Below are positions 22,293 through 32,883 of a stretch of 64,000 nt of DNA, one piece after another. Position 1 is the stretch's first letter; each line of letters begins with the position of its first letter. Below the pieces are notes generated by a model, which worked only from the letters and a program-made list of their open reading frames with translations, made no database searches and was not told the origin of the DNA. The position numbers and the translations under genes are program-made. This DNA comes from a phage, in sequence record PX880102.1; one strand, written 5' to 3'.

Positions 22293-22300
22293 TATAAATA
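22293..22300 (+). promoter_or_regulatory. late promoter TATAAATA for gene 34
   Basis: exact TATAAATA 35 nt upstream of the gene 34 ATG; AGGAG RBS. Confidence 0.65.
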
Positions 22301-22334: not shown

Positions 22335-25300
22335 ATGGCCGAGATTAAAAGAAAGTTCAGAGCAGAAGATGGTCTGGACGCAGGTGGCGATAAAATAATC
22401 AACGTAGCTTTAGCTGATCGTGCCGTAGGAACTGACGGTGTTAACGTTGATTACCTAATTCAAGAAAACACAGTTCAACAATACGATCCAACTCGTGGAT
22501 ATTTAAAAGATTTTGTAATCATTTATGATAACCGTTTTTGGGCTGCTATAAATGATATTCCAAAACCAGCGGGAGCTTTTAATAGCGTACGCTGGAGAGC
22601 ATTACGTACTGATGCTAATTGGACAACTGTTTCATCAGGACCTTATCAATTAAAGTCAGGTGAATCAATTTCAGTTAATACTGCAGCAGGAAATGATATC
22701 ACATTTACTTTGCCAACTTCTCCAATTGATGGAGATACTATCGTTCTTCAAGATATTGGTGGAAAACCCGGAGTTAACCAAGTTTTAATTGTAGCTCCAG
22801 TGCAAAGTATTGTAAACTTTAGAGGCGAACAAGTACGATCAGTACTAATGACCCATCCAAAATCACAGATAGTTTTAATTTTTAGTAATCGTCTGTGGCA
22901 AATGTATGTGGCTGATTATAGCAGAGAAGCGGTAGTTGTGACGCCAGCAAGTCTCTACCAGGCGCAGTCAAACGATTTTATCGTGCGCAGATTTACTTCT
23001 GCTGCACCGATAAATATTAAACTTCCAAGATTTGCTAATCATGGCGATATTATTAATTTCGTTGATTTAGATAAATTAAATCCTCTTTATCATACAATTG
23101 TTACTACATATGATGAAACTACATCAGTACAAGAAGATGGAACTCATTCCATTGAAGGCCGTACATCTATTGATGGTTTCTTGATGTATGATGATAATGA
23201 GAAATTATGGAGATTATTTGACGGGGATAGTAAAGCACGTTTACGCATTATAACAACTAATTCTAATATTCGTCCAAACGAAGAAGTTATGGTATTTGGT
23301 GCGAATAATGGAACAACCCAAACAATTGAACTTCAGCTTCCGACTGATATTTCTGTTGGTGATACTGTCAAAATTTCCATGAATTACATGAGAAAAGGAC
23401 AAACAGTTAAAATCAAAGCTGCAGGTGAAGATAAAATTGCTTCTTCAGTTCAATTGCTGCAATTCCCAAAACGTTCAGAATATCCACCTGAAGCTGAATG
23501 GGTGACTGTTCAAGAATTAGTTTTTAACGGTGAAACTAATTATGTTCCAGTTTTACAACTTGCTTATATCGAAGATTCTGACGGAAAATACTGGGTTGTA
23601 CAGCAAAACGTTCCAACTGTAGAAAGAGTTGATTCTTTAAATGATTCTACTAGAGCAAGATTAGGCGTGATTGCTTTAGCTACACAAGCTCAAGCTAACG
23701 TCGATTTAGAAAATTCTCCACAAAAAGAATTAGCAATTACTCCAGAAACATTAGCTAACCGTACTGCTACAGAAACTCGTAGAGGTATCGCAAGAATAGC
23801 AACCACTGCTCAAGTGAACCAGGACACTACATTCTCTTTTGCTGATGATATTATCATCACTCCTAAAAAGCTGAATGAAAGAACAGCTACTGAAACTCGC
23901 AGAGGTGTTGCTGAAATTGCTACGCAGCAAGAAACTAATGCAGGAACCGATGATACTACAATCATCACTCCTAAAAAGCTTCAAGCTCGCCAAGGTTCTG
24001 AATCATTATCTGGTATTGTAACTTTTGTATCTACTGCAGGTGCTACTCCAGCTTCTAGCCGTGAATTAAATGGTACGAATGTTTATAATAAAAACACCAA
24101 TAATTTAGTTGTTTCACCTAAAGCTTTAGATCAGTATAAAGCTACTCCAACACAGCAAGGTGCGGTAATTTTAGCAGTTGAAAGTGAAGTAATTGCTGGA
24201 CAAAGTCAGGAAGGATGGGCAAATGCTGTTGTAACGCCAGAAACGTTACATAAAAAGACATCAACTGATGGAAGAATTGGTTTAATTGAAATTGCTACGC
24301 AAAGTGAAGTTAATACAGGAACTGATTATACACGTGCAGTCACTCCTAAAACTTTAAATGACCGTAGAGCAACTGAAAGTTTAAGTGGTATAGCTGAAAT
24401 TGCTACACAAGTTGAATTCGACGCAGGCGTCGACGATACTCGTATCTCTACACCATTAAAAATTAAAACTAGATTTAATAGTACTGATCGTACTTCTGTT
24501 GTTGCTCTATCTGGATTAGTTGAATCAGGAACTCTCTGGGACCATTATACCCTTAATATTCTTGAAGCAAATGAGACACAGCGTGGTACACTTCGTGTAG
24601 CTACACAGGTTGAAGCTGCTGCAGGAACATTAGATAATGTTTTAATAACTCCTAAAAAGCTTTTAGGTACTAAATCTACTGAAGCGCAAGAAGGTGTTAT
24701 TAAAGTTGCAACTCAGTCTGAAACTGTGGCTGGAACGTCAGCAAATACTGCTGTATCTCCAAAAAATTTAAAATGGATTGTGCAGAGTGAACCTACCTGG
24801 GCAGCTACTACTACAGTAAGAGGCTTTGTTAAAACTTCATCTGGTTCAATTACATTTGTCGGTAATGATACAGTCGGTTCTACCCAAGATTTAGAACTGT
24901 ATGAGAAAAATAGCTATGCAGTATCACCATACGAATTAAACCGTGTATTAGCAAATTATTTACCGTTAAAAGCAAAAGCTGCTGATAGTAATTTATTGGA
25001 TAGTCTAGATTCATCTCAGTTCATTCGTAGGGACATTGCGCAGACGGTTAATGGTTCACTAACCTTAACCCAACAAACGAATCTGAGTGCCCCTCTTGTA
25101 TCATCTAGTACTGCTACGTTTGGTGGATCAGTTTCGGCAAATAGTACACTAACTATTTCTAATACTGATAGAACAGCAACTCGTCTGATTTTTGAGAAAG
25201 GATCTCAAACTGGAACGAACCCGGCTCAAACGATGACAGTCAGCGTGTGGGGGAATCAATTTAGTGGGGAATCAAACACAACACGTTCTACCGTATTTGA

Positions 25301-26207
25301 AGTTAGTGATGAAACATCTTATCACTTTTATTCTCAACGCGATAAAGATGGTAATATAGCATTTAGCATTAATGGTACTGTAATGCCAATAAATGTGAAT
25401 GCTTTAGGAACATTGAATGCAAATGGTGTAGCAACATTTGGTAATTCAGTCACTGCAAGTGGTGAAATTATTTCTCGAAGCGCAAATGCTTTCCGTGCTA
25501 TTAACGGAAATTATGGTTTTATTGTTCGCAATGACGGGTCAGTAACGAATTTTATGCTTACTGCATCGGGCGATCAGACTGGTGGATTTAATGGATTACG
25601 TCCATTAACTATTAATAATGCATCTGGTCAAGTAACGATTGGTGAAAGCTTAATCATTGCCAAAGGTGCTACTATAAATTCAGGCGGTTTAACTGTTAAC
25701 TCGAGAATTCGTTCTCAGGGCACTAAAACATCTGACTTATATACCCGTGTGCCGACATCTGATACTGTAGGATTCTGGTCAATTGACATTAATGATTCAG
25801 CTACTTATAACCAGTTCCCGGGTTATTTTGAAATGGTTGAAAAAACTAATGAAGTGACTGGACTTCCATACTTAGAACGTGGCGAAGAGGTTAAATCTCC
25901 TGGTACATTGACTCAGTTTGGTAACACACTTGATTCGCTTTACCAAGATTGGATTACTTATCCAACTACCCCAGAAGCTCGCACCACTCGCTGGACACGC
26001 ACATGGCAGAAAACCAAAAATTCTTGGTCAAGTTTTGTTCAGGTATTTGATGGAGGTAACCCTCCTCAGCCATCTGATATTGGTGCTTTACCATCTGATA
26101 ATGCTATAATGGGGAATCTTACTATTCGTGATTTCTTACGAATTGGTAATGTTCGCATTATTCCTGACCCAGTGAATAAAACGGTTAAATTTGAATGGGT
26201 TGAATAA
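22335..26207 (+). CDS. 34: gp34 long tail fibre proximal subunit (1290 aa)
   Basis: size; repeated ITPKKL...ATETRRG fibre motifs; late promoter upstream. Confidence 0.9.
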   Translation: MAEIKRKFRAEDGLDAGGDKIINVALADRAVGTDGVNVDYLIQENTVQQYDPTRGYLKDFVIIYDNRFWAAINDIPKPAGAFNSVRWRALRTDANWTTVSSGPYQLKSGESISVNTAAGNDITFTLPTSPIDGDTIVLQDIGGKPGVNQVLIVAPVQSIVNFRGEQVRSVLMTHPKSQIVLIFSNRLWQMYVADYSREAVVVTPASLYQAQSNDFIVRRFTSAAPINIKLPRFANHGDIINFVDLDKLNPLYHTIVTTYDETTSVQEDGTHSIEGRTSIDGFLMYDDNEKLWRLFDGDSKARLRIITTNSNIRPNEEVMVFGANNGTTQTIELQLPTDISVGDTVKISMNYMRKGQTVKIKAAGEDKIASSVQLLQFPKRSEYPPEAEWVTVQELVFNGETNYVPVLQLAYIEDSDGKYWVVQQNVPTVERVDSLNDSTRARLGVIALATQAQANVDLENSPQKELAITPETLANRTATETRRGIARIATTAQVNQDTTFSFADDIIITPKKLNERTATETRRGVAEIATQQETNAGTDDTTIITPKKLQARQGSESLSGIVTFVSTAGATPASSRELNGTNVYNKNTNNLVVSPKALDQYKATPTQQGAVILAVESEVIAGQSQEGWANAVVTPETLHKKTSTDGRIGLIEIATQSEVNTGTDYTRAVTPKTLNDRRATESLSGIAEIATQVEFDAGVDDTRISTPLKIKTRFNSTDRTSVVALSGLVESGTLWDHYTLNILEANETQRGTLRVATQVEAAAGTLDNVLITPKKLLGTKSTEAQEGVIKVATQSETVAGTSANTAVSPKNLKWIVQSEPTWAATTTVRGFVKTSSGSITFVGNDTVGSTQDLELYEKNSYAVSPYELNRVLANYLPLKAKAADSNLLDSLDSSQFIRRDIAQTVNGSLTLTQQTNLSAPLVSSSTATFGGSVSANSTLTISNTDRTATRLIFEKGSQTGTNPAQTMTVSVWGNQFSGESNTTRSTVFEVSDETSYHFYSQRDKDGNIAFSINGTVMPINVNALGTLNANGVATFGNSVTASGEIISRSANAFRAINGNYGFIVRNDGSVTNFMLTASGDQTGGFNGLRPLTINNASGQVTIGESLIIAKGATINSGGLTVNSRIRSQGTKTSDLYTRVPTSDTVGFWSIDINDSATYNQFPGYFEMVEKTNEVTGLPYLERGEEVKSPGTLTQFGNTLDSLYQDWITYPTTPEARTTRWTRTWQKTKNSWSSFVQVFDGGNPPQPSDIGALPSDNAIMGNLTIRDFLRIGNVRIIPDPVNKTVKFEWVE

Positions 26208-26215
26208 GAGGTATT

Positions 26216-27331
26216 ATGGAAAAATTTATGGCAGAGTTTGGACAAGGATATGTCCAAACGCCATTTTTATCGGAAAGTAATTCAGTAAGATATAAAATAA
26301 GTATAGCGGGTTCTTGCCCGCTTTCTACTGCAGGACCATACGTCAAATTTCAGGATAATCTTGTTGGAAGCCAAACATTTAGCGCAGGTCTTCATTTAAG
26401 AGTTTTTGACCCTTCTACAGGAGCATTAGTTGATAGTAAGTCATATGCTTTTTCAACTTCAAATGATACTACATCAGCTGCTTTTGTTAGTTTCATGAAT
26501 TCTTTGGCGAATAACAGACTTGTTGCTATATTAACTAGCGGAAAGGTTAATTTTCCTCCTGAAGTAGTATCTTGGTTAAGAGCAGCAGGAACGTCTGCTT
26601 TTCCATCTGATTCTTTATTGTCAAGATTTGACGTATCATATGCTGCCTTTTATACTTCTTCCAAAGGAGCTATTGCATTAGAACATGTTAAACTAAGTAA
26701 TAGAAAAAGCACAGATGACTATCAAACTATTTTAGATGTTGTATTTGACAGTTTAGAAGACGTTGGAGCTACGGGATTTCCTAAAAGAACATATGAAAGC
26801 GTGGAGCAATTTATGTCAGCAGTCGGTGGAACTAATAACGAAATTGCACGTTTACCAACTTCATCCGCAATAAGTAAACTCTCTGATTATAATTTAATTC
26901 CTGGCGATGTTCTTTATCTTAAAGCGCAGTTATATGCTGATGCAGATTTACTTGCGCTTGGAACTACAAATATATCTATCCGTTTTTATGATGAATCGAA
27001 TGGATATATTTCTTCAACACATGCCGAGTTTACTGGTCAAGCTGGGTCATGGGAATTAAAGGAAGACTATGTAGTTATTCCAGAAAATGCAGTAGGATTT
27101 ACGATATATGCACAAAGAACTGCGCAAGCAGGTCAAGGTGGCATGAGAAATTTAAGCTTTTCTGAAGTATCAAGAAATGGAGGAATTTCAAAACCTGCTG
27201 AATTTGGCGTCAATGGTATTCGAGTTAATTATGTCTGTGAATCTGCTTCACCTCCGGATATAATGGTACTTCCTACACAAGCATCGTCTAAAACTGGTAA
27301 AGTGTTTGGACAAGAATTTAGAGAAGTTTAA
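26216..27331 (+). CDS. 35: gp35 long tail fibre hinge protein (371 aa)
   Basis: size and order 34-35-36-37. Confidence 0.85.
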   Translation: MEKFMAEFGQGYVQTPFLSESNSVRYKISIAGSCPLSTAGPYVKFQDNLVGSQTFSAGLHLRVFDPSTGALVDSKSYAFSTSNDTTSAAFVSFMNSLANNRLVAILTSGKVNFPPEVVSWLRAAGTSAFPSDSLLSRFDVSYAAFYTSSKGAIALEHVKLSNRKSTDDYQTILDVVFDSLEDVGATGFPKRTYESVEQFMSAVGGTNNEIARLPTSSAISKLSDYNLIPGDVLYLKAQLYADADLLALGTTNISIRFYDESNGYISSTHAEFTGQAGSWELKEDYVVIPENAVGFTIYAQRTAQAGQGGMRNLSFSEVSRNGGISKPAEFGVNGIRVNYVCESASPPDIMVLPTQASSKTGKVFGQEFREV

Positions 27332-27336
27332 ATTGA

Positions 27337-27359
27337 GGGAGCCTTCGGGTTCCCTTTTT
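27337..27359 (+). terminator. intrinsic terminator after gene 35
   Basis: GGGAGCC-UUCG-GGUUCCC hairpin plus UUUUU. Confidence 0.65.
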
Positions 27360-27362
27360 CTT

Positions 27363-27370
27363 TATAAATA
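27363..27370 (+). promoter_or_regulatory. late promoter TATAAATA for genes 36-37-38
   Basis: exact TATAAATA 24 nt upstream of the gene 36 ATG. Confidence 0.65.
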
Positions 27371-27393
27371 CTATTAAAATAAAGGGGCATACA

Positions 27394-28050
27394 ATGGCTG
27401 ATTTAAAAGTAGGTTCAACAACTGGAGGCTCTGTCATTTGGCATCAAGGAAATTTTCCATTGAATCCAGCCGGTGACGATGTACTCTATAAATCATTTAA
27501 AATATATTCAGAATATAATAAGCCACAAGCTGCCGATAACGATTTCGTTTCTAAAGCTAATGGCGGTACGTATTTAAATAAAGTAATTTTTAATAAAGGA
27601 ATGACTGTTCCTGGCGCAGGGTCAGGTGATAATGGTATTTTTGCTGGTCCTGGTGATAGTGCCACGTATGATACTACAAATATGGATATTGTTTCGTGGT
27701 ATGGTATTGGTTTTAAATCATCACAAGGAACAGCAGGTAGAACTGTAGTAATTAACACGCGAAATGGAGATATTAGCTCAAAGGGTGTAATTGAAGCATC
27801 ACAAATCCGTGTAACTTCGTTATCACCAGTAAATAATTATGACCTTACGCGGAAAGATTATGTTGATGGAGCAATAAATATTGTTACAGCAAACGCAAAC
27901 TCTAGGGTATTACGCTCTGGAGACACTATGACAGGAAATTTAACTGCGCCAAACCTTTTTTCACAGAATCCTGCATCTCAACCCTCGCATGTTCCACGAT
28001 TTGACCAAATTGTTATTAAGGATTCTGTTCAAGATTTCGGCTATTATTAA
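27394..28050 (+). CDS. 36: gp36 long tail fibre distal connector (218 aa)
   Basis: size and order; own late promoter. Confidence 0.85.
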   Translation: MADLKVGSTTGGSVIWHQGNFPLNPAGDDVLYKSFKIYSEYNKPQAADNDFVSKANGGTYLNKVIFNKGMTVPGAGSGDNGIFAGPGDSATYDTTNMDIVSWYGIGFKSSQGTAGRTVVINTRNGDISSKGVIEASQIRVTSLSPVNNYDLTRKDYVDGAINIVTANANSRVLRSGDTMTGNLTAPNLFSQNPASQPSHVPRFDQIVIKDSVQDFGYY

Positions 28051-28058
28051 GAGGACTT

Positions 28059-31000
28059 ATGGCTACTTTAAAACAAATACAATTTAAAAGAAGCAAAACT
28101 GCAGGAGCACGTCCTGCCGCTTCAGTATTAGCCGAAGGTGAATTGGCTATAAACTTAAAAGACCGTGTACTTTTTACTAAAGATGACCAAGGAAATATTA
28201 TTGATCTGGGTTTTGCTAAAGGCGGTAGTATTGACGGGAATGTTATTCATACAGGCAATTATAACCAAACTGGCGATTATACTTTAAATGGTGTCTTCAC
28301 TCAGACTGGTAATTTTAATTTAACTGGTATTGCTCGAGTAACTCGCGATATTATTGCCGCTGGGCAGATTATGACTGAAGGCGGAGAACTTATTACAAAA
28401 AGTTCAGGTACAGCGCATGTTCGTTTTTTCGATAACAATAGTCGCGAACGCGGAATCATTTATGCCCCGGCTAATGATGGTTTAACTACACAAGTACTTA
28501 ATATCAGGGTTCAAGACTACGCCGCTGGTAGCGAAAGCACTTATGCATTTTCAGGCAGTGGACTATTTACTTCACCTGAAGTATCAGCATGGAAATCTAT
28601 TTCGTCTCCACAAATTCTAACCAACAAAGTCATTACTAATAATAAATCTACGGGTGATTATGACATCTATTCGATGGCAGACAATGTTCCATTGTCTGAA
28701 AGCACTACTGCTATTAATCATCTTCGTGTCATGCGTAATGCCGTTGGTTCTAGTATTTTCCATGAAGTTAAAGATAATGATGGAATAACTTGGTATGCAG
28801 GTGATGGACTTGACACCTATCTTTGGTCATTTACTTGGAGCGGCGGAATTAAATCGAGTCACTCAATTTCTATTGGTTTAACACCTGGTAATAAAGATTA
28901 TTCAATATTAGGACCATCTAGTATTGCTTTAGGAGATAATGATACTGGATTTAAATGGCATCAAGATGGATATTATTTTAGCGTTAATAATGGAACAAAA
29001 ACGTTTTTATTTAGTCCTAGCGAAACAACTAGCCTAAGAAAATTTGTAGCTGGATATTCTACTAACGGAACCGATTTAACTACTCCTCCAACTGAAAACT
29101 ATGCATTAGCCACTGTTGTTACTTACCATGATAATAACGCATACGGCGACGGTCAAACTCTTTTAGGATATTATCAAGGCGGTAACTATCATCATTATTT
29201 CCGCGGTAAAGGTACTACAAACATTAATACTCACGGCGGTTTGTTAGTTACTCCTGGTAATATTGACGTTATTGGTGGTTCTGTTAATATCGATGGTAGA
29301 AATAATAATTCAATTTTAATGTTTAAAGGCTATACCATGGGTCAAAGCTCCGTTGATAACATGTATATAGCTGTTTGGGGAAATACTTTTACTAATCCAA
29401 GTGAAGGCACCCGTAAAAATGTCATGGAAATTTCTGATGATATTGGATGGATGCATTATATTCAACGAACAACTGCAGGTAAAGTCGAATCGGTTCTAAA
29501 CGGCACCCAGATTGTTAATGAAAACTTGACCGTAGTAAAAAATGCTACATTTGATGGTACAATCAGCGCAGCAGGTGAAATTTCATCTGGGGCTGTGAAT
29601 GCGCTTCGTATTTGGAACGCAGATTATGGAGCTATTTTTAGACGTTCAGAAGGCAGTCTTCATATTATTCCAACTGCTTACGGTGAAGGTAAATATGGCG
29701 ATATCGGTCCACTTCGCCCGTTTAGTATGGCTTTAGATACCGGTAAAGTTACTATTCCAGATTTACAATCAAGTTACAATACGTTTGCTGCTAACGGCTA
29801 TATTAAATTTGTTGGTCATGGAGCGGGTGCCGGCGGTTATGACATTCAATATGCTCAAGCGGCTCCTATTTTCCAGGAAATTGATGATGATGCTGTAAGC
29901 AAATATTATCCTATTGTTAAACAGAAGTTTTTAAATGGTAAAGCCGTTTGGTCTTTAGGTACTGAAATTAATTCGGGTACATTCGTTATTCATCATCTGA
30001 AAGAAGATGGTTCACAAGGCCATACGTCTCGTTTTAATCAAGACGGTACTGTTAACTTCCCAGATAACGTTTCTGTCGGCGGCGGTGAAGCTACTATTGC
30101 TCGCAATGGTAATATCTGGTCTGATATCTGGAAAACGTTTACTTTAGCAGGCGACGTAACTAATATTCGCGATGCAATAGCTACTCGTGTTGCTAAAGAA
30201 GGTGATACGATGACCGGTAGGTTGACTTTATCTGCTGGAAATGATGCCCTTGTTTTAACTGCAGGCACGGGCGCTTCATCGCACATCCGTAGTGATGTAG
30301 GTGGTACAAATAATTGGTTTATAGGCAAAGGCGGCGGCGACAATGGTCTAAGTTTTTACAGTTACATTACACAAGGCGGTGTGAACATAACAAATAACGG
30401 CGAAATAGCGCTTTCTCCTCAAGGACAAGGAGCGTTTAATTTTAATAGAGACCGCCTTCATATAAACGGTACACAATGGACCGCACACCAGGCTGGCGAT
30501 TGGGGAAATCAATGGCGCCAGGAAGCTCCTGTATTTGTGGATTTTGGTAATGTCGGTAATGATAGTTATTATCCTATTATTAAAGGAAAATCTGGTATTA
30601 CTAATGAAGGGTATATATCTGGTGTAGATTTTGGTATGCGACGCATTCCTAATAACTGGGCACAAGGTATTATTCGTGTAGGTAATCAGGAAAACGGTTC
30701 CGACCCACAAGCTATCTTCGAATTCCACCATAATGGAAACATGTGCGTTCCTGACATGGTTAAAGCTGGAGTAAGAATATCAGCCGGTGGAGGTGACCCT
30801 GTATGGACAGGCGCATGTGTTGTTATTGGTGATAATGACACCGGATTAGTTCATGGTGGTGACGGCCGAATCAATATGGTTGCCAATGGTATACATATTG
30901 CAAACTGGGGAGCAGGCTATCAATCTCATCCTGGGCTTTGGGATTCAACCGGTGCTTTTTGGACAGAAGTTGGAAGAGCTATCGTTTCTCATGGGCATCT

Positions 31001-31388
31001 CGTTCAGGCAAATGATAGTTATTCAACGTTTGTCCGTGATGTTTATGTCCGTTCTGATATTCGTGTTAAAAAAGACCTTGTTAAATTTGAAAATGCTTCT
31101 GAGAAGCTTTCAAAAATTAATGGTTACACTTATATGCAGAAGCGAGGCCTAGATGAAGAAGGTAATCAAAAATGGGAACCTAATGCCGGTTTAATTGCCC
31201 AAGAAGTTCAAGCTATTTTACCTGAATTAGTTGAAGGCGATCAGGATAGTGAAGCTTTACTTCGTTTGAACTATAACGGTGTAATTGGTTTAAATACAGC
31301 TGCAATCAATGAGCATACTGCAGAAATTGCAGAACTTAAATCAGAAATTGAAGAACTTAAAGCATTAGTTAAATCATTGTTAAAATAA
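28059..31388 (+). CDS. 37: gp37 long tail fibre distal subunit (1109 aa) with C-terminal intramolecular chaperone domain
   Basis: size and order; C-terminal SDIRVKKD motif followed by a coiled-coil tail. Confidence 0.9.
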
Positions 31389-31393
31389 TAAGA

Positions 31394-31407
31394 GGGGCTT
31401 CGGCCCC
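31394..31407 (+). other. GC stem-loop between genes 37 and 38
   Basis: GGGGC-UUCG-GCCCC hairpin directly before the gp38 RBS; no U-run. Confidence 0.5.
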
Positions 31408-31419
31408 TTGGAGGTTTAT

Positions 31420-32196
31420 ATGGCAGTAACAGGACCGTGGGTAGGATCGTCTGCAGTAGTTAATACAGGACAAAATTGGATGGGTGGTGCCGCGCAGAGA
31501 TTGAGAATGGGAATTCCGTTTTGGATGAGTAATATGATAGGTAGATCTGTTGAAATAATTCACACGCTTGGAGCAGACCATAACTTCAATGGTCAATGGT
31601 TCCGAGATAGATGTTTTGAGGCAGGTAGTGCACCTATAGTGTTTAATATCACTGGAGATTTAGTATCATATTCTAAAGATGTTCCTTTATTCTTCATGTA
31701 TGGAGATACACCGAATGAATATGTTCAGTTGAATATACACGGCGTAACGATGTATGGACGTGGCGGTAATGGCGGTAGCAATAGTCCTGGTTCAGCTGGA
31801 GGTCATTGTATTCAAAACGATATTGGTGGGAGACTAAGAATTAATAATGGCGGAGCTATTGCTGGAGGTGGCGGCGGTGGCGGTGGCGGATATTATTCTC
31901 CTTTTTCACAAATGAGATTGACTTTTGGAGGTGGCGGCGGGCGTCCGTTTGGCGCACCGGGCGGATCTATTGATATGCAATCAGGAGCAACTGCTGGTAC
32001 TATTTCTGCGCCTGGCGCAGGGTCCGTGAACGGTATCTATAGCGGCGGTGGCGGTGGCGAAGTTGGCTCCGCAGGAGGTAGATGTAATATTCGTGGTCAA
32101 GGATATGAATACGATGGCGGAGCTGCTGGTTATGCCGTCATAGGGTCTACACCGACATGGCAAAACGTTGGAGCAATATATGGTCCAAGAGTATAA
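31420..32196 (+). CDS. 38: gp38 T2-type receptor-recognising adhesin with glycine-rich motifs (258 aa)
   Basis: MAVTGPW start 5 nt after GGAGG; poly-Gly blocks separated by variable segments; ORF track start 31408 rejected. Confidence 0.9.
31864..31890 (+). repeat. GGN codon simple repeat (poly-Gly block) inside gene 38
   Basis: ggtggcggcggtggcggtggcgga. Confidence 0.6.
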
Positions 32197-32226: not shown

Positions 32227-32883
32227 ATGGCAGCACCTAGAATATCATTTTCGCCCTCTGATATTCTGTTGGGTGTTCTAGATCGCTTGTTCAAAGATAA
32301 CGCTACCGGGAAAGTTCTTGCTTCCCGGGTAGCTGTCGTAATTCTTTTATTTATGATGGCGATTGTTTGGTATAGGGGAGATAGTTTCTTTGAGTACTAT
32401 AAGCAATCAAAGTATGAAACATACAGTGAAATTATTGAAAAGGAAAGAAATGCACGCTTTGAATCTGTCGCCCTGGAACAACTCCAGATAGTTCATATAT
32501 CATCTGAGGCAGACTTTAGTGCGGTGTATTCTTTCCGCCCTAAAAACTTAAACTATTTTGTCGATATTATAGCATACGAAGGAAGATTACCTTCGACAAT
32601 AACAGAAAAATCACTTGGAGGATATCCTGTTGATAAAACTATGGATGAATATGCAGTTCATTTAAATGGACGTCATTATTATTCTGACTCAAAATTTGCT
32701 TTTTTACCAACTAAAAAGCCTACTCCCGAAATAAACTACATGTACAGTTGTCCATATTTCAATTTGGATAATATCTATGCTGGAACGATAACCATGTACT
32801 GGTATAGAAATGATCATATAAGTAATGACCGCCTTGAATCAATATGTGCTCAGGCGGCCAGAATATTAGGAAGGGCTAAATAA
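32227..32883 (+). CDS. t: holin T (218 aa)
   Basis: 218 aa; single N-terminal TM segment and large periplasmic domain; position after gene 38. Confidence 0.85.
   Translation: MAAPRISFSPSDILLGVLDRLFKDNATGKVLASRVAVVILLFMMAIVWYRGDSFFEYYKQSKYETYSEIIEKERNARFESVALEQLQIVHISSEADFSAVYSFRPKNLNYFVDIIAYEGRLPSTITEKSLGGYPVDKTMDEYAVHLNGRHYYSDSKFAFLPTKKPTPEINYMYSCPYFNLDNIYAGTITMYWYRNDHISNDRLESICAQAARILGRAK

Follow-up and report, generated by a model that had tools for sequence, protein, structure and literature searches.

A predicted adhesin-capped long tail fibre tip combining an S16-like gp37 with T6-like gp38 receptor loops in a Tequatrovirus

Host recognition by the long tail fibre begins with a reversible step, which is determined by the gp37 tip and gp38, and the adhesin-capped association of these two has been described in the gp37(3)-gp38 complex of phage S16 (PDB 6F45; Dunne et al. 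2018). In this phage, gp37 autocleaves at DLNVS^SDRRIKK, freeing 113 residues and exposing the docking surface of gp38 (PMC7917993), and tryptophans of the N-terminal part of gp38 have a role in its docking to the gp37 tip (PMC6851490). The receptors recognised by such adhesins are diverse: gp38 of PP01 binds OmpC (PMC12892980), the adhesin of T2 uses FadL/OmpF, and Tsx is used by RB27 and T6-like phages. The T6-type combination of four hypervariable segments (HVS) is found in nearly all Tsx adhesins and is the criterion of the Tsx-type subgroup (PMC3157838). Single substitutions in the hypervariable loops alter specificity, as known from PST compared with T6: three loop residues differ between them and recognition of OmpA was gained (PMC3157838). 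Infection by FL23/FL44 is tsx-dependent (PMC12032242), as is that by RB27 and T6 (PMC3157838), and both gp37 and gp38 of phage G10400 were reported as S16-like (Korf et al. 2019).

The window analysed here, a 64,000-nucleotide stretch of phage DNA (sequence record PX880102.1), carries at positions 28059-32196 a pair of genes which very probably encode the adhesin-capped (T2/T6/S16-type) distal tip of a Tequatrovirus long tail fibre, with a self-cleaving gp37, a gp38 adhesin and Tsx as predicted receptor. According to the open reading frames and Pfam matches, the fibre module follows the order 34-35-36-37-38-t. Gene 36 (27394..28050, plus strand) encodes the 218-aa distal-half connector of the long tail fibre (Phage_T4_gp36, E 1.5e-28). 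Gene 37, which is intact (28059..31388, plus strand), encodes the distal subunit precursor of 1109 aa and 119.6 kDa. Gene 38 (31420..32196, plus strand), likewise intact, lies directly downstream of it and upstream of the holin gene t (32227..32883, plus strand; Phage_holin_T, E 3.8e-116), the downstream boundary of the module. As a block of about 7 kb, the fibre module appears to have recently moved between Tequatrovirus backbones.

The gp38 frame is given in the ORF list as 31408-32196, with 262 aa counted from a TTG. This start was dropped in favour of the ATG at 31420 (258 aa), also annotated as the start in G10400, RB27, FL23 and T6, because the TTG directly abuts the 3' arm of a hairpin and because the Shine-Dalgarno sequence (GGAGG, 31410..31414, plus strand), located 5 nt upstream of the ATG, serves the latter. 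The intercistronic hairpin (GGGGC-UUCG-GCCCC, 31394..31407, plus strand) immediately follows the tandem stop codons of gene 37, and its stem is present in the MFE structure of its 46-nt context (-14.1 kcal/mol). It is labelled “putative terminator” in the G10400 annotation; as it is followed by no U-run, it would probably act in mRNA stability or processing rather than as a terminator. Upstream of the locus, the T4-type late promoter consensus TATAAATA occurs in the intergenic region 24 nt before gene 36 (27363..27370, plus strand), and a second copy at 22293 just precedes gene 34. Scanning the window gave 6 matches where about 10 were expected by chance, hence no excess, so that only these two sites just upstream of genes 34 and 36 were considered meaningful. 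From its position and the known biology of T4 late promoters, the copy at 27363 probably starts a late 36-37-38(-t) transcript. Within gene 37, two ORFs on the minus strand (101 and 127 aa) were taken as chance ORFs because they have no annotated counterpart in G10400, RB27, T6 and FL23.

The product of gene 38, predicted to be a monomeric receptor-recognising adhesin, matches the Pfam families GP38 (PF05268; E 1.2e-70, 238.2 bits for a cut-off of 25) and Gp38_N (PF21721; E 1.5e-21, 76.6 bits, same cut-off), as well as two solved adhesin structures, the PP01 gp38 receptor-binding domain (9v85, E 1e-81) and S16 gp38 (6f45_D, E 1e-51). Matches of this strength, like those of gp37 given below, greatly exceed what chance would produce. 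The protein is 100% identical to gp38 of G10400 and 4E10. Its N-terminal attachment domain (Gp38_N; residues 1-40, 31420..31539, plus strand) contains W7, W20 and W35, invariant in all six phages aligned, and, like that of S16, has no counterpart of the 2-residue insertion “VP” found in T2 and T6. The glycine-rich domain (residues ~113-258, 31756..32193, plus strand) is predicted to form a polyglycine-II sandwich bearing a T6/RB27-type loop set. Glycine accounts for 24% of the whole protein and 34% of residues 108-258, with runs at 149-157 (G9), 170-174 (G5) and 209-213 (G5), and the alignments delineate hypervariable loops at ~158-169, 183-208 and 214-232, alternating with conserved glycine-rich motifs. 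The first-pass annotation, which had announced an adhesin of about 258 aa with several poly-Gly blocks separated by variable segments, is thus borne out for this protein.

The hypervariable segments of gp38 share 81-92% identity with those of T6, versus 0-45% with those of T2, and are 100% identical to those of RB27 except for Y229S; the window phage has therefore the T6-type set. Its gp38 also displays 94% identity with that of FL23/FL44. Given the T6/RB27 loop set of this gp38, the nucleoside channel Tsx is predicted as receptor, and gp38 of the window phage most likely binds E. coli Tsx, as far as its sequence tells. Once the adhesin type is known, the receptor (Tsx), the probable routes to resistance (loss of tsx) and the compatibility of parts in fibre engineering become predictable. 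Residue 229, in the last hypervariable loop, is a Ser in RB27, FL23 and T6, and among the compared phages only G10400 and 4E10 share the Tyr of the window phage; since loop substitutions can switch specificity, Tsx is a strong prediction and not a certainty. A receptor other than Tsx or additional to it (e.g. OmpA, OmpC or LPS), recognised through the same architecture owing to Y229 or to the positions at which gp38 departs from T6 (163, 185, 192, 197, 200, 208 and 211), appears unlikely. The gain of OmpA recognition by PST through three loop changes speaks for it, together with the phylogenetic proximity of type-1 OmpA adhesins to Tsx adhesins (PMC12032242) and the fact that none of RB27, FL23 and T6, the Tsx users tested, has Y229. 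However, all receptor-domain residues but 229 are those of the Tsx user RB27, the positions of the PST switch (Q167, M168 and G208 in T6) are unchanged here (Q164, M165 and G205), and this HVS set is the one that nearly all Tsx adhesins carry (PMC3157838). There is, at most, a slight chance that Y229 shifts or broadens recognition, for example towards another porin or allelic variants of Tsx, which would make of this fibre module a natural host-range variant.

An intramolecular chaperone (IMC) / Peptidase_S74 domain was delineated at the C-terminus of gp37 (residues 999-1109, 31053..31385, plus strand; 111 aa, 12.4 kDa), with a match to PF13884 over residues 999-1058 (E 1.1e-12, 48.4 bits, above the gathering threshold of 22). 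It starts with the SDIRVKKD motif (999-1006), which includes the predicted nucleophile Ser999 (codon 31053-31055, plus strand) and Lys1004 (codon 31068-31070, plus strand), its partner in the Ser-x4-Lys motif; S999, D1000, R1002 and K1004 are invariant in the six aligned phages (window phage, RB27, FL23, S16, T6 and T2). A phmmer search with the 111-aa domain alone retrieved residues 93-204 of S16 6f45_A (E 4e-32) and a marginal MYRF match, and nothing else. A profile built from the six phages matched the MYRF ICA (7dc3, 4.9e-10), the tail fibre 8jov (1.4e-6) and the GA-1 neck-appendage IMC (3gud, 0.0027), the last two being beyond the reach of the single-domain search, and aligned the Ser constituting residue 1 of the 3gud chain with Ser999. 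The domain ends in a long amphipathic C-terminal helix; in a single-sequence AlphaFold2 model of residues 981-1109, which is poor (mean pLDDT 52.6) and does not independently confirm the fold, only the last ~25 residues, which form this helix, are confident. The chaperone nature, the length of 1109 aa and the helical tail proposed in the first-pass annotation agree with these results, and the SDIRVKKD motif on which it relied is indeed present, although its position is 111 residues short of the C-terminus rather than at the extreme end.

By alignment with S16, the cleavage site of gp37 reads DVYVR998^S999DIRVKK, and an autocleavage that would separate R998 from S999 is predicted to free residues 999-1109. 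A point that speaks against this reading is Arg998 itself, just N-terminal to the predicted cut, where S16 has a Ser; T2, T6, RB27 and FL23 have an Arg there as well. As cleavage is predicted from homology, the S74-like domain could conceivably stay on the mature fibre, whether because no cut takes place or because the cut piece does not detach, gp38 being then bound elsewhere. We regard this as very improbable. The gp37 of T2 reportedly undergoes C-terminal proteolytic processing (Drexler, Riede and Henning 1986, J Mol Biol 191:267). Moreover, both residues of the Ser-x4-Lys dyad are in place and do not vary among the aligned phages, and the docking surface of gp38 in S16 arises by removal of the IMC (PMC7917993), which also argues for a cleaved gp37.

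In the preferred reading of a self-cleaving gp37, the docking surface of gp38 is predicted to be displayed, after cleavage, by the segment preceding the chaperone. This S16-type beta-helical tip (residues 918-998, 30810..31052, plus strand) aligns with residues 25-92 of 6f45_A and ends with ...FVRDVYVR998; it shows 41% identity with S16 versus 9-21% with T6 and T2, and residues 918-1109 as a whole match 6f45_A with an E-value of 1.5e-43. The protein is identical to gp37 of G10400 at 1101 of its 1109 positions. At its other extremity, residues 1-60 share 75-100% identity with gp37 of T4, T2, T6, S16 and FL23. Residues 417-567 (29307..29759, plus strand) constitute a Gp34_trimer-type domain, homologous to the C-terminal trimerisation domain of gp34 (Pfam E 6.7e-8) and also matching PDB 4uxe/5nxf/5nxh/9x3r (E ~1e-16). 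Self-BLAST of gp37 revealed no internal repeats at E<1e-3; residues ~600-650 and ~812-911 align to one and the same region of T4 gp37, the second weakly (E 0.033). A T4-type arrangement, with the C-terminus of gp37 as a receptor-binding needle and gp38 as an assembly chaperone outside the virion, would fit the gene order, which is that of T4, and the T4 gp37 homology over residues 1-646 (35% identity), but it is refuted almost beyond doubt, since the alignments revealed neither homology to the T4 (His-x-His) needle tip past residue ~646 of gp37 nor similarity of gp38 to the 183-aa T4 gp38 (best E 1.9), as the first-pass annotation had anticipated, and since gp37 and gp38 each have a match in the adhesin-capped complex of S16 (6f45).

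Judged on sequence identities, the locus is a mosaic, with receptor loops of gp38 that are T6-like and a tip and chaperone of gp37 that are S16-like (41-57% identity to S16 versus 9-40% to T2/T6). Its initial designation as “T2/T6-like” consequently holds for the gp38 loops with regard to T6 (gp38 86% identical) and fails with regard to T2 (49%), and the gp37 tip and chaperone are of the S16/RB27 type.

The following assembly can be proposed for the adhesin-capped tip. Genes 36-37-38 would be transcribed late, probably from the TATAAATA promoter at 27363, and gp37 would first be made as a precursor of 1109 residues. Its last 111 residues would act as an intramolecular chaperone, trimerising and templating the folding of the preceding beta-helical tip, before removing themselves through the Ser999/Lys1004 dyad by a cut between Arg998 and Ser999. 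On the triangular gp37 tip bared by this cleavage, one gp38 monomer would dock by W7, W20 and W35 of its N-terminal helical domain, leading us to infer a 3:1 gp37:gp38 stoichiometry. The C-terminal half of gp38, folded as a polyglycine-II sandwich, would then present the hypervariable loops to the host receptor, predicted to be Tsx from their T6/RB27-type set.

The underlying biology being established, the value of this analysis lies in a correct annotation rather than in a discovery. For the long tail fibre tip of a T4-like coliphage, the arrangement is ordinary and already described, as the same S16-like conclusion was published for the locus of G10400 (vB_EcoM_G10400, MK327937; Korf et al. 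2019), the DNA of which is 99.7% identical over 28059-32196. The eight substitutions between the two gp37 all lie upstream of residue 919, the last ones at 915 and 918, and both proteins are identical from 919 to the C-terminus. The flanking genome of G10400 is only ~95-98% identical to the window, which indicates that the window corresponds to a different isolate sharing the fibre module. Two further close phages are 4E10 and 121/2022-2B. RB27 (KM607000) comes with 91% identity over the gp37 tip and IMC and 98% over gp38, in which five substitutions were found (G22S, G23S, I32T, I46V and Y229S), only Y229S being in the receptor domain.

The Tsx adhesin of T6 is 86% identical to gp38 of the window phage overall and 81-100% over the glycine-rich motifs and hypervariable loops, whereas in gp37 the tip and IMC of T6 are unrelated or weakly related (9% and 25-33%), from which it follows that the two phages have different types of gp37/gp38 interface. 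T2 has in common with the window the adhesin-capped architecture and the S74 motif of gp37, but differs in gp38 (49% identity, loops 0-45%) and in the gp37 tip (21%), so that a different receptor is expected. The gp38 receptor-binding domain of PP01 (9V85) represents the best PDB match (E 1e-81) and is almost identical over residues ~37-150, a stretch that spans the beta-helix together with the initial glycine-rich motifs, while its hypervariable loops differ past ~158. A gp37 tip of the S16/RB27 type requires a gp38 whose N-terminus fits it, as the incompatibility between T2 and PP01 demonstrates (PMC12892980). The S74 chaperone domains of endosialidase type (3GUD, 7DC3) share with the window the Ser-x4-Lys motif at the start of the domain and the C-terminal helix, with a low identity outside the motif and with another upstream passenger, a T-even fibre tip in the window instead of a tailspike or a transcription factor. 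Lastly, the S16 gp37(3)-gp38 complex has the architecture predicted for the locus described here. The gp37 of S16, whose shaft is much shorter (749 versus 1109 aa for the whole protein), shares 41% identity in the tip and 55-57% in the IMC, with an aligned cleavage motif, and its gp38 belongs to the same fold family (E 1e-51) and keeps the three docking tryptophans, with loops that are unrelated (8-23% identity).

The late genes form one plus-strand run from gp34 to holin T in the six-frame ORF list of the window: gp34 (22335-26207, 1290 aa; Pfam Gp34_2nd and Gp34_trimer), gp35 (26216-27331, 371 aa, assigned by position), gp36 (27394-28050, 218 aa; Pfam Phage_T4_gp36), gp37 (28059-31388, 1109 aa), gp38 (31408/31420-32196, 262 or 258 aa depending on the start) and holin T (32227-32883, 218 aa; Pfam Phage_holin_T, E 4e-116). 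The bounds of 28059-32196 set for the fibre tip by the first-pass annotation agree exactly with this list. The junction of genes 37 and 38 reads TAA TAA GA GGGGC-TTCG-GCCCC TT GGAGG TTTAT ATG, an order in which the Shine-Dalgarno sequence serves the ATG of gene 38 at 31420, giving a product of 258 aa; this start is annotated identically in Escherichia phage vB_EcoM_G10400 (MK327937), RB27, FL23 and T6. The perfect GGGGC-UUCG-GCCCC tetraloop hairpin at 31394-31407, between the double stop of gene 37 and this Shine-Dalgarno sequence, is labelled “putative terminator” in G10400; no U-run follows it, and its 46-nt context has a z-score of -1.3. It is presumably akin to the C(UUCG)G hairpins classically found between T4 genes as stability elements. 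The late-promoter consensus TATAAATA occurs on the plus strand immediately upstream of gene 34 (22293-22300) and of gene 36 (27363-27370), its total across the window being not above chance.

The holin of G10400 (10622-11314 in L006, the sequence of that phage) is annotated from a start 36 nt farther upstream, giving a 693-nt gene overlapping the end of gene 38; the t gene has its standard 657 nt in T4, T6, RB27, FL23 and the window, and the longer form is probably an annotation artefact. In gp35, residues 58-123 match the Pfam family ILEI/FAM3 “interleukin-like EMT inducer” (E 4.8e-8, 33.8 bits; cut-off 27), an unexpected fold assignment for the hinge connector, or fibre knee, protein.

A T4-type tip is refuted by both proteins. 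The alignment with T4 gp37 is confined to residues 1-646 (35% identity) and contains no match to the T4 needle tip, and gp38 shows no similarity to the 183-aa T4 gp38 (best E 1.9). Neither of the two outcomes that would have spoken against the T2-type organisation first proposed for this locus was found. The gp38 protein matches Pfam GP38 (E 1.2e-70) and Gp38_N (E 1.5e-21), the solved receptor-binding domain of PP01 gp38 (9v85, PMC12892980; E 1e-81) and S16 gp38 (6f45_D, E 1e-51). Three tryptophans of S16 gp38 plug into the gp37 tip (PMC6851490), and the docking tryptophans W7, W20 and W35 are present and invariant in the gp38 alignment. Glycine makes up 24% of the protein, with runs G9, G5 and G5, and in its C-terminal half conserved glycine-rich motifs alternate with hypervariable segments, as expected and as the initial description of poly-Gly blocks had it.

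The C-terminus of gp37 was proposed to be a self-cleaving chaperone domain; several comparisons bear out the chaperone assignment and predict the self-cleavage. The SDIRVKKD motif (residues 999-1006) opens the last 111 residues of the protein; residues 999-1058 score 48.4 bits against Pfam Peptidase_S74 (“Chaperone of endosialidase”; curated cut-off 22), and the solved S16 gp37 tip construct 6f45_A is matched by residues 918-1109 (E 1.5e-43) and by the last 111 residues alone (E 4e-32). In a C-terminal alignment of six phages (A4: window, RB27, FL23, S16, T6 and T2), S999, D1000, R1002 and K1004 are invariant in all six, the rest falling to about 30% identity between types. An HHpred-style search of all PDB chains with the six-phage profile, the check proposed in the first-pass annotation, came out positive, its relevant hits being the MYRF intramolecular-chaperone autoprocessing domain (7dc3, E 4.9e-10), the tail fibre 8jov (E 1.4e-6) and the GA-1 neck-appendage chaperone domain (3gud, E 2.7e-3), whose crystallised chain begins with the Ser aligned to Ser999. 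According to Dunne et al. 2018 as relayed in PMC7917993, S16 gp37 autocleaves at DLNVS^SDRRIKK, which frees 113 residues and uncovers the surface where gp38 docks. The aligned site at which the window gp37 would be cleaved is DVYVR998^S999DIRVKK, with predicted products of 998 residues (mature form, 107.3 kDa) and 12.4 kDa (released fragment). From the single sequence of residues 981-1109, AlphaFold2 gave a poor model (mean pLDDT 52.6).

Upstream, residues 1-60 are the conserved N-terminus common to all T-even gp37 proteins, and residues 417-567 (29307-29759) form a homologue of the trimerisation domain at the gp34 C-terminus (Pfam Gp34_trimer; PDB 4uxe/5nxf, E ~1e-16), a domain found in both the proximal and the distal half-fibre. 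A “YYPI(V/I)K” motif recurs in two segments, at about 600-650 (29850-30000) and 812-911 (30490-30790), both matching T4 gp37 at about 686-786, the second weakly (E 0.033). This pairing hints at an ancient internal duplication; self-BLAST of gp37 found no internal repeat at E<1e-3. The G+C content rises to 0.426 at 30001-32000 over a background of about 0.35, with a strongly positive GC skew (+0.21), in a stretch overlapping gp38 and the gp37 tip, both rich in Gly (GGN codons).

Segment-wise identities show the locus to be a mosaic: its receptor head is of the T6 type and its gp37-gp38 interface of the S16/RB27 type. Over its whole length gp38 is 98% identical to RB27, 86% to T6, 51% to S16 and 49% to T2, and its hypervariable segments are 81-92% identical to T6, 8-23% to S16 and 0-45% to T2, differing from RB27 only by Y229S. 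The N-terminal attachment domain (1-40) is 62% identical to S16, 58% to T6 and 48% to T2, and RB27 differs there at G22S, G23S and I32T only. The gp37 tip (918-998) is 41% identical to S16, 21% to T2 and 9% to T6, and the chaperone domain (999-1109) 55-57%, 20-40% and 25-33%, respectively; tip and chaperone domain combined (918-1109) are 91% identical to RB27. The earlier label “T2/T6-like” narrows to T6-like for the receptor head and does not extend to the interface. The interface type matters, since PP01 gp38 failed to complement a T2 gene-38 deletion until given the T2 N-terminus (PMC12892980).

The receptor predicted from these comparisons, with fairly high confidence, is the nucleoside channel Tsx. 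RB27 gp38 differs at G22S, G23S, I32T, I46V and Y229S, only the last lying inside the receptor domain, and Tsx is the receptor that Trojet et al. 2011 (PMC3157838) report for RB27 and the other T6-like adhesins; FL23 and FL44, whose gp38 is 94% identical, no longer infect a delta-tsx host (PMC12032242); and the three positions giving PST its added OmpA recognition, T6 Q167, M168 and G208 (PMC3157838), are unchanged as Q164, M165 and G205. The prediction stops short of certainty because single loop substitutions can shift specificity (PMC3157838) and Y229 lies in the receptor domain.

At least 80% of the 4.1-kb locus is covered in 123 phage records. In G10400 it is 99.7% identical in DNA, with 1101 of 1109 gp37 residues and all 258 gp38 residues identical. 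Binned identity delimits a block of about 99-100% at ~25000-32000, from the gp34 C-terminus through gp38, with flanks 91-98% identical to G10400; the upstream 22 kb reach at most 96% identity to other Tequatroviruses such as REP2. This suggests that a fibre module of about 7 kb was exchanged recently. Korf et al. 2019 (PMC6563267) already predicted the G10400 gp37 C-terminus and gp38 to be S16-like (gp37/gp38, 6F45). The adhesin-capped gp37/gp38 tip is thus a correct and already known finding, its architecture, chaperone domain, cleavage site, polyglycine sandwich and Tsx-type loop set all being in the literature, and the identity pattern is one well known from T-even phages, which swap fibre modules horizontally.
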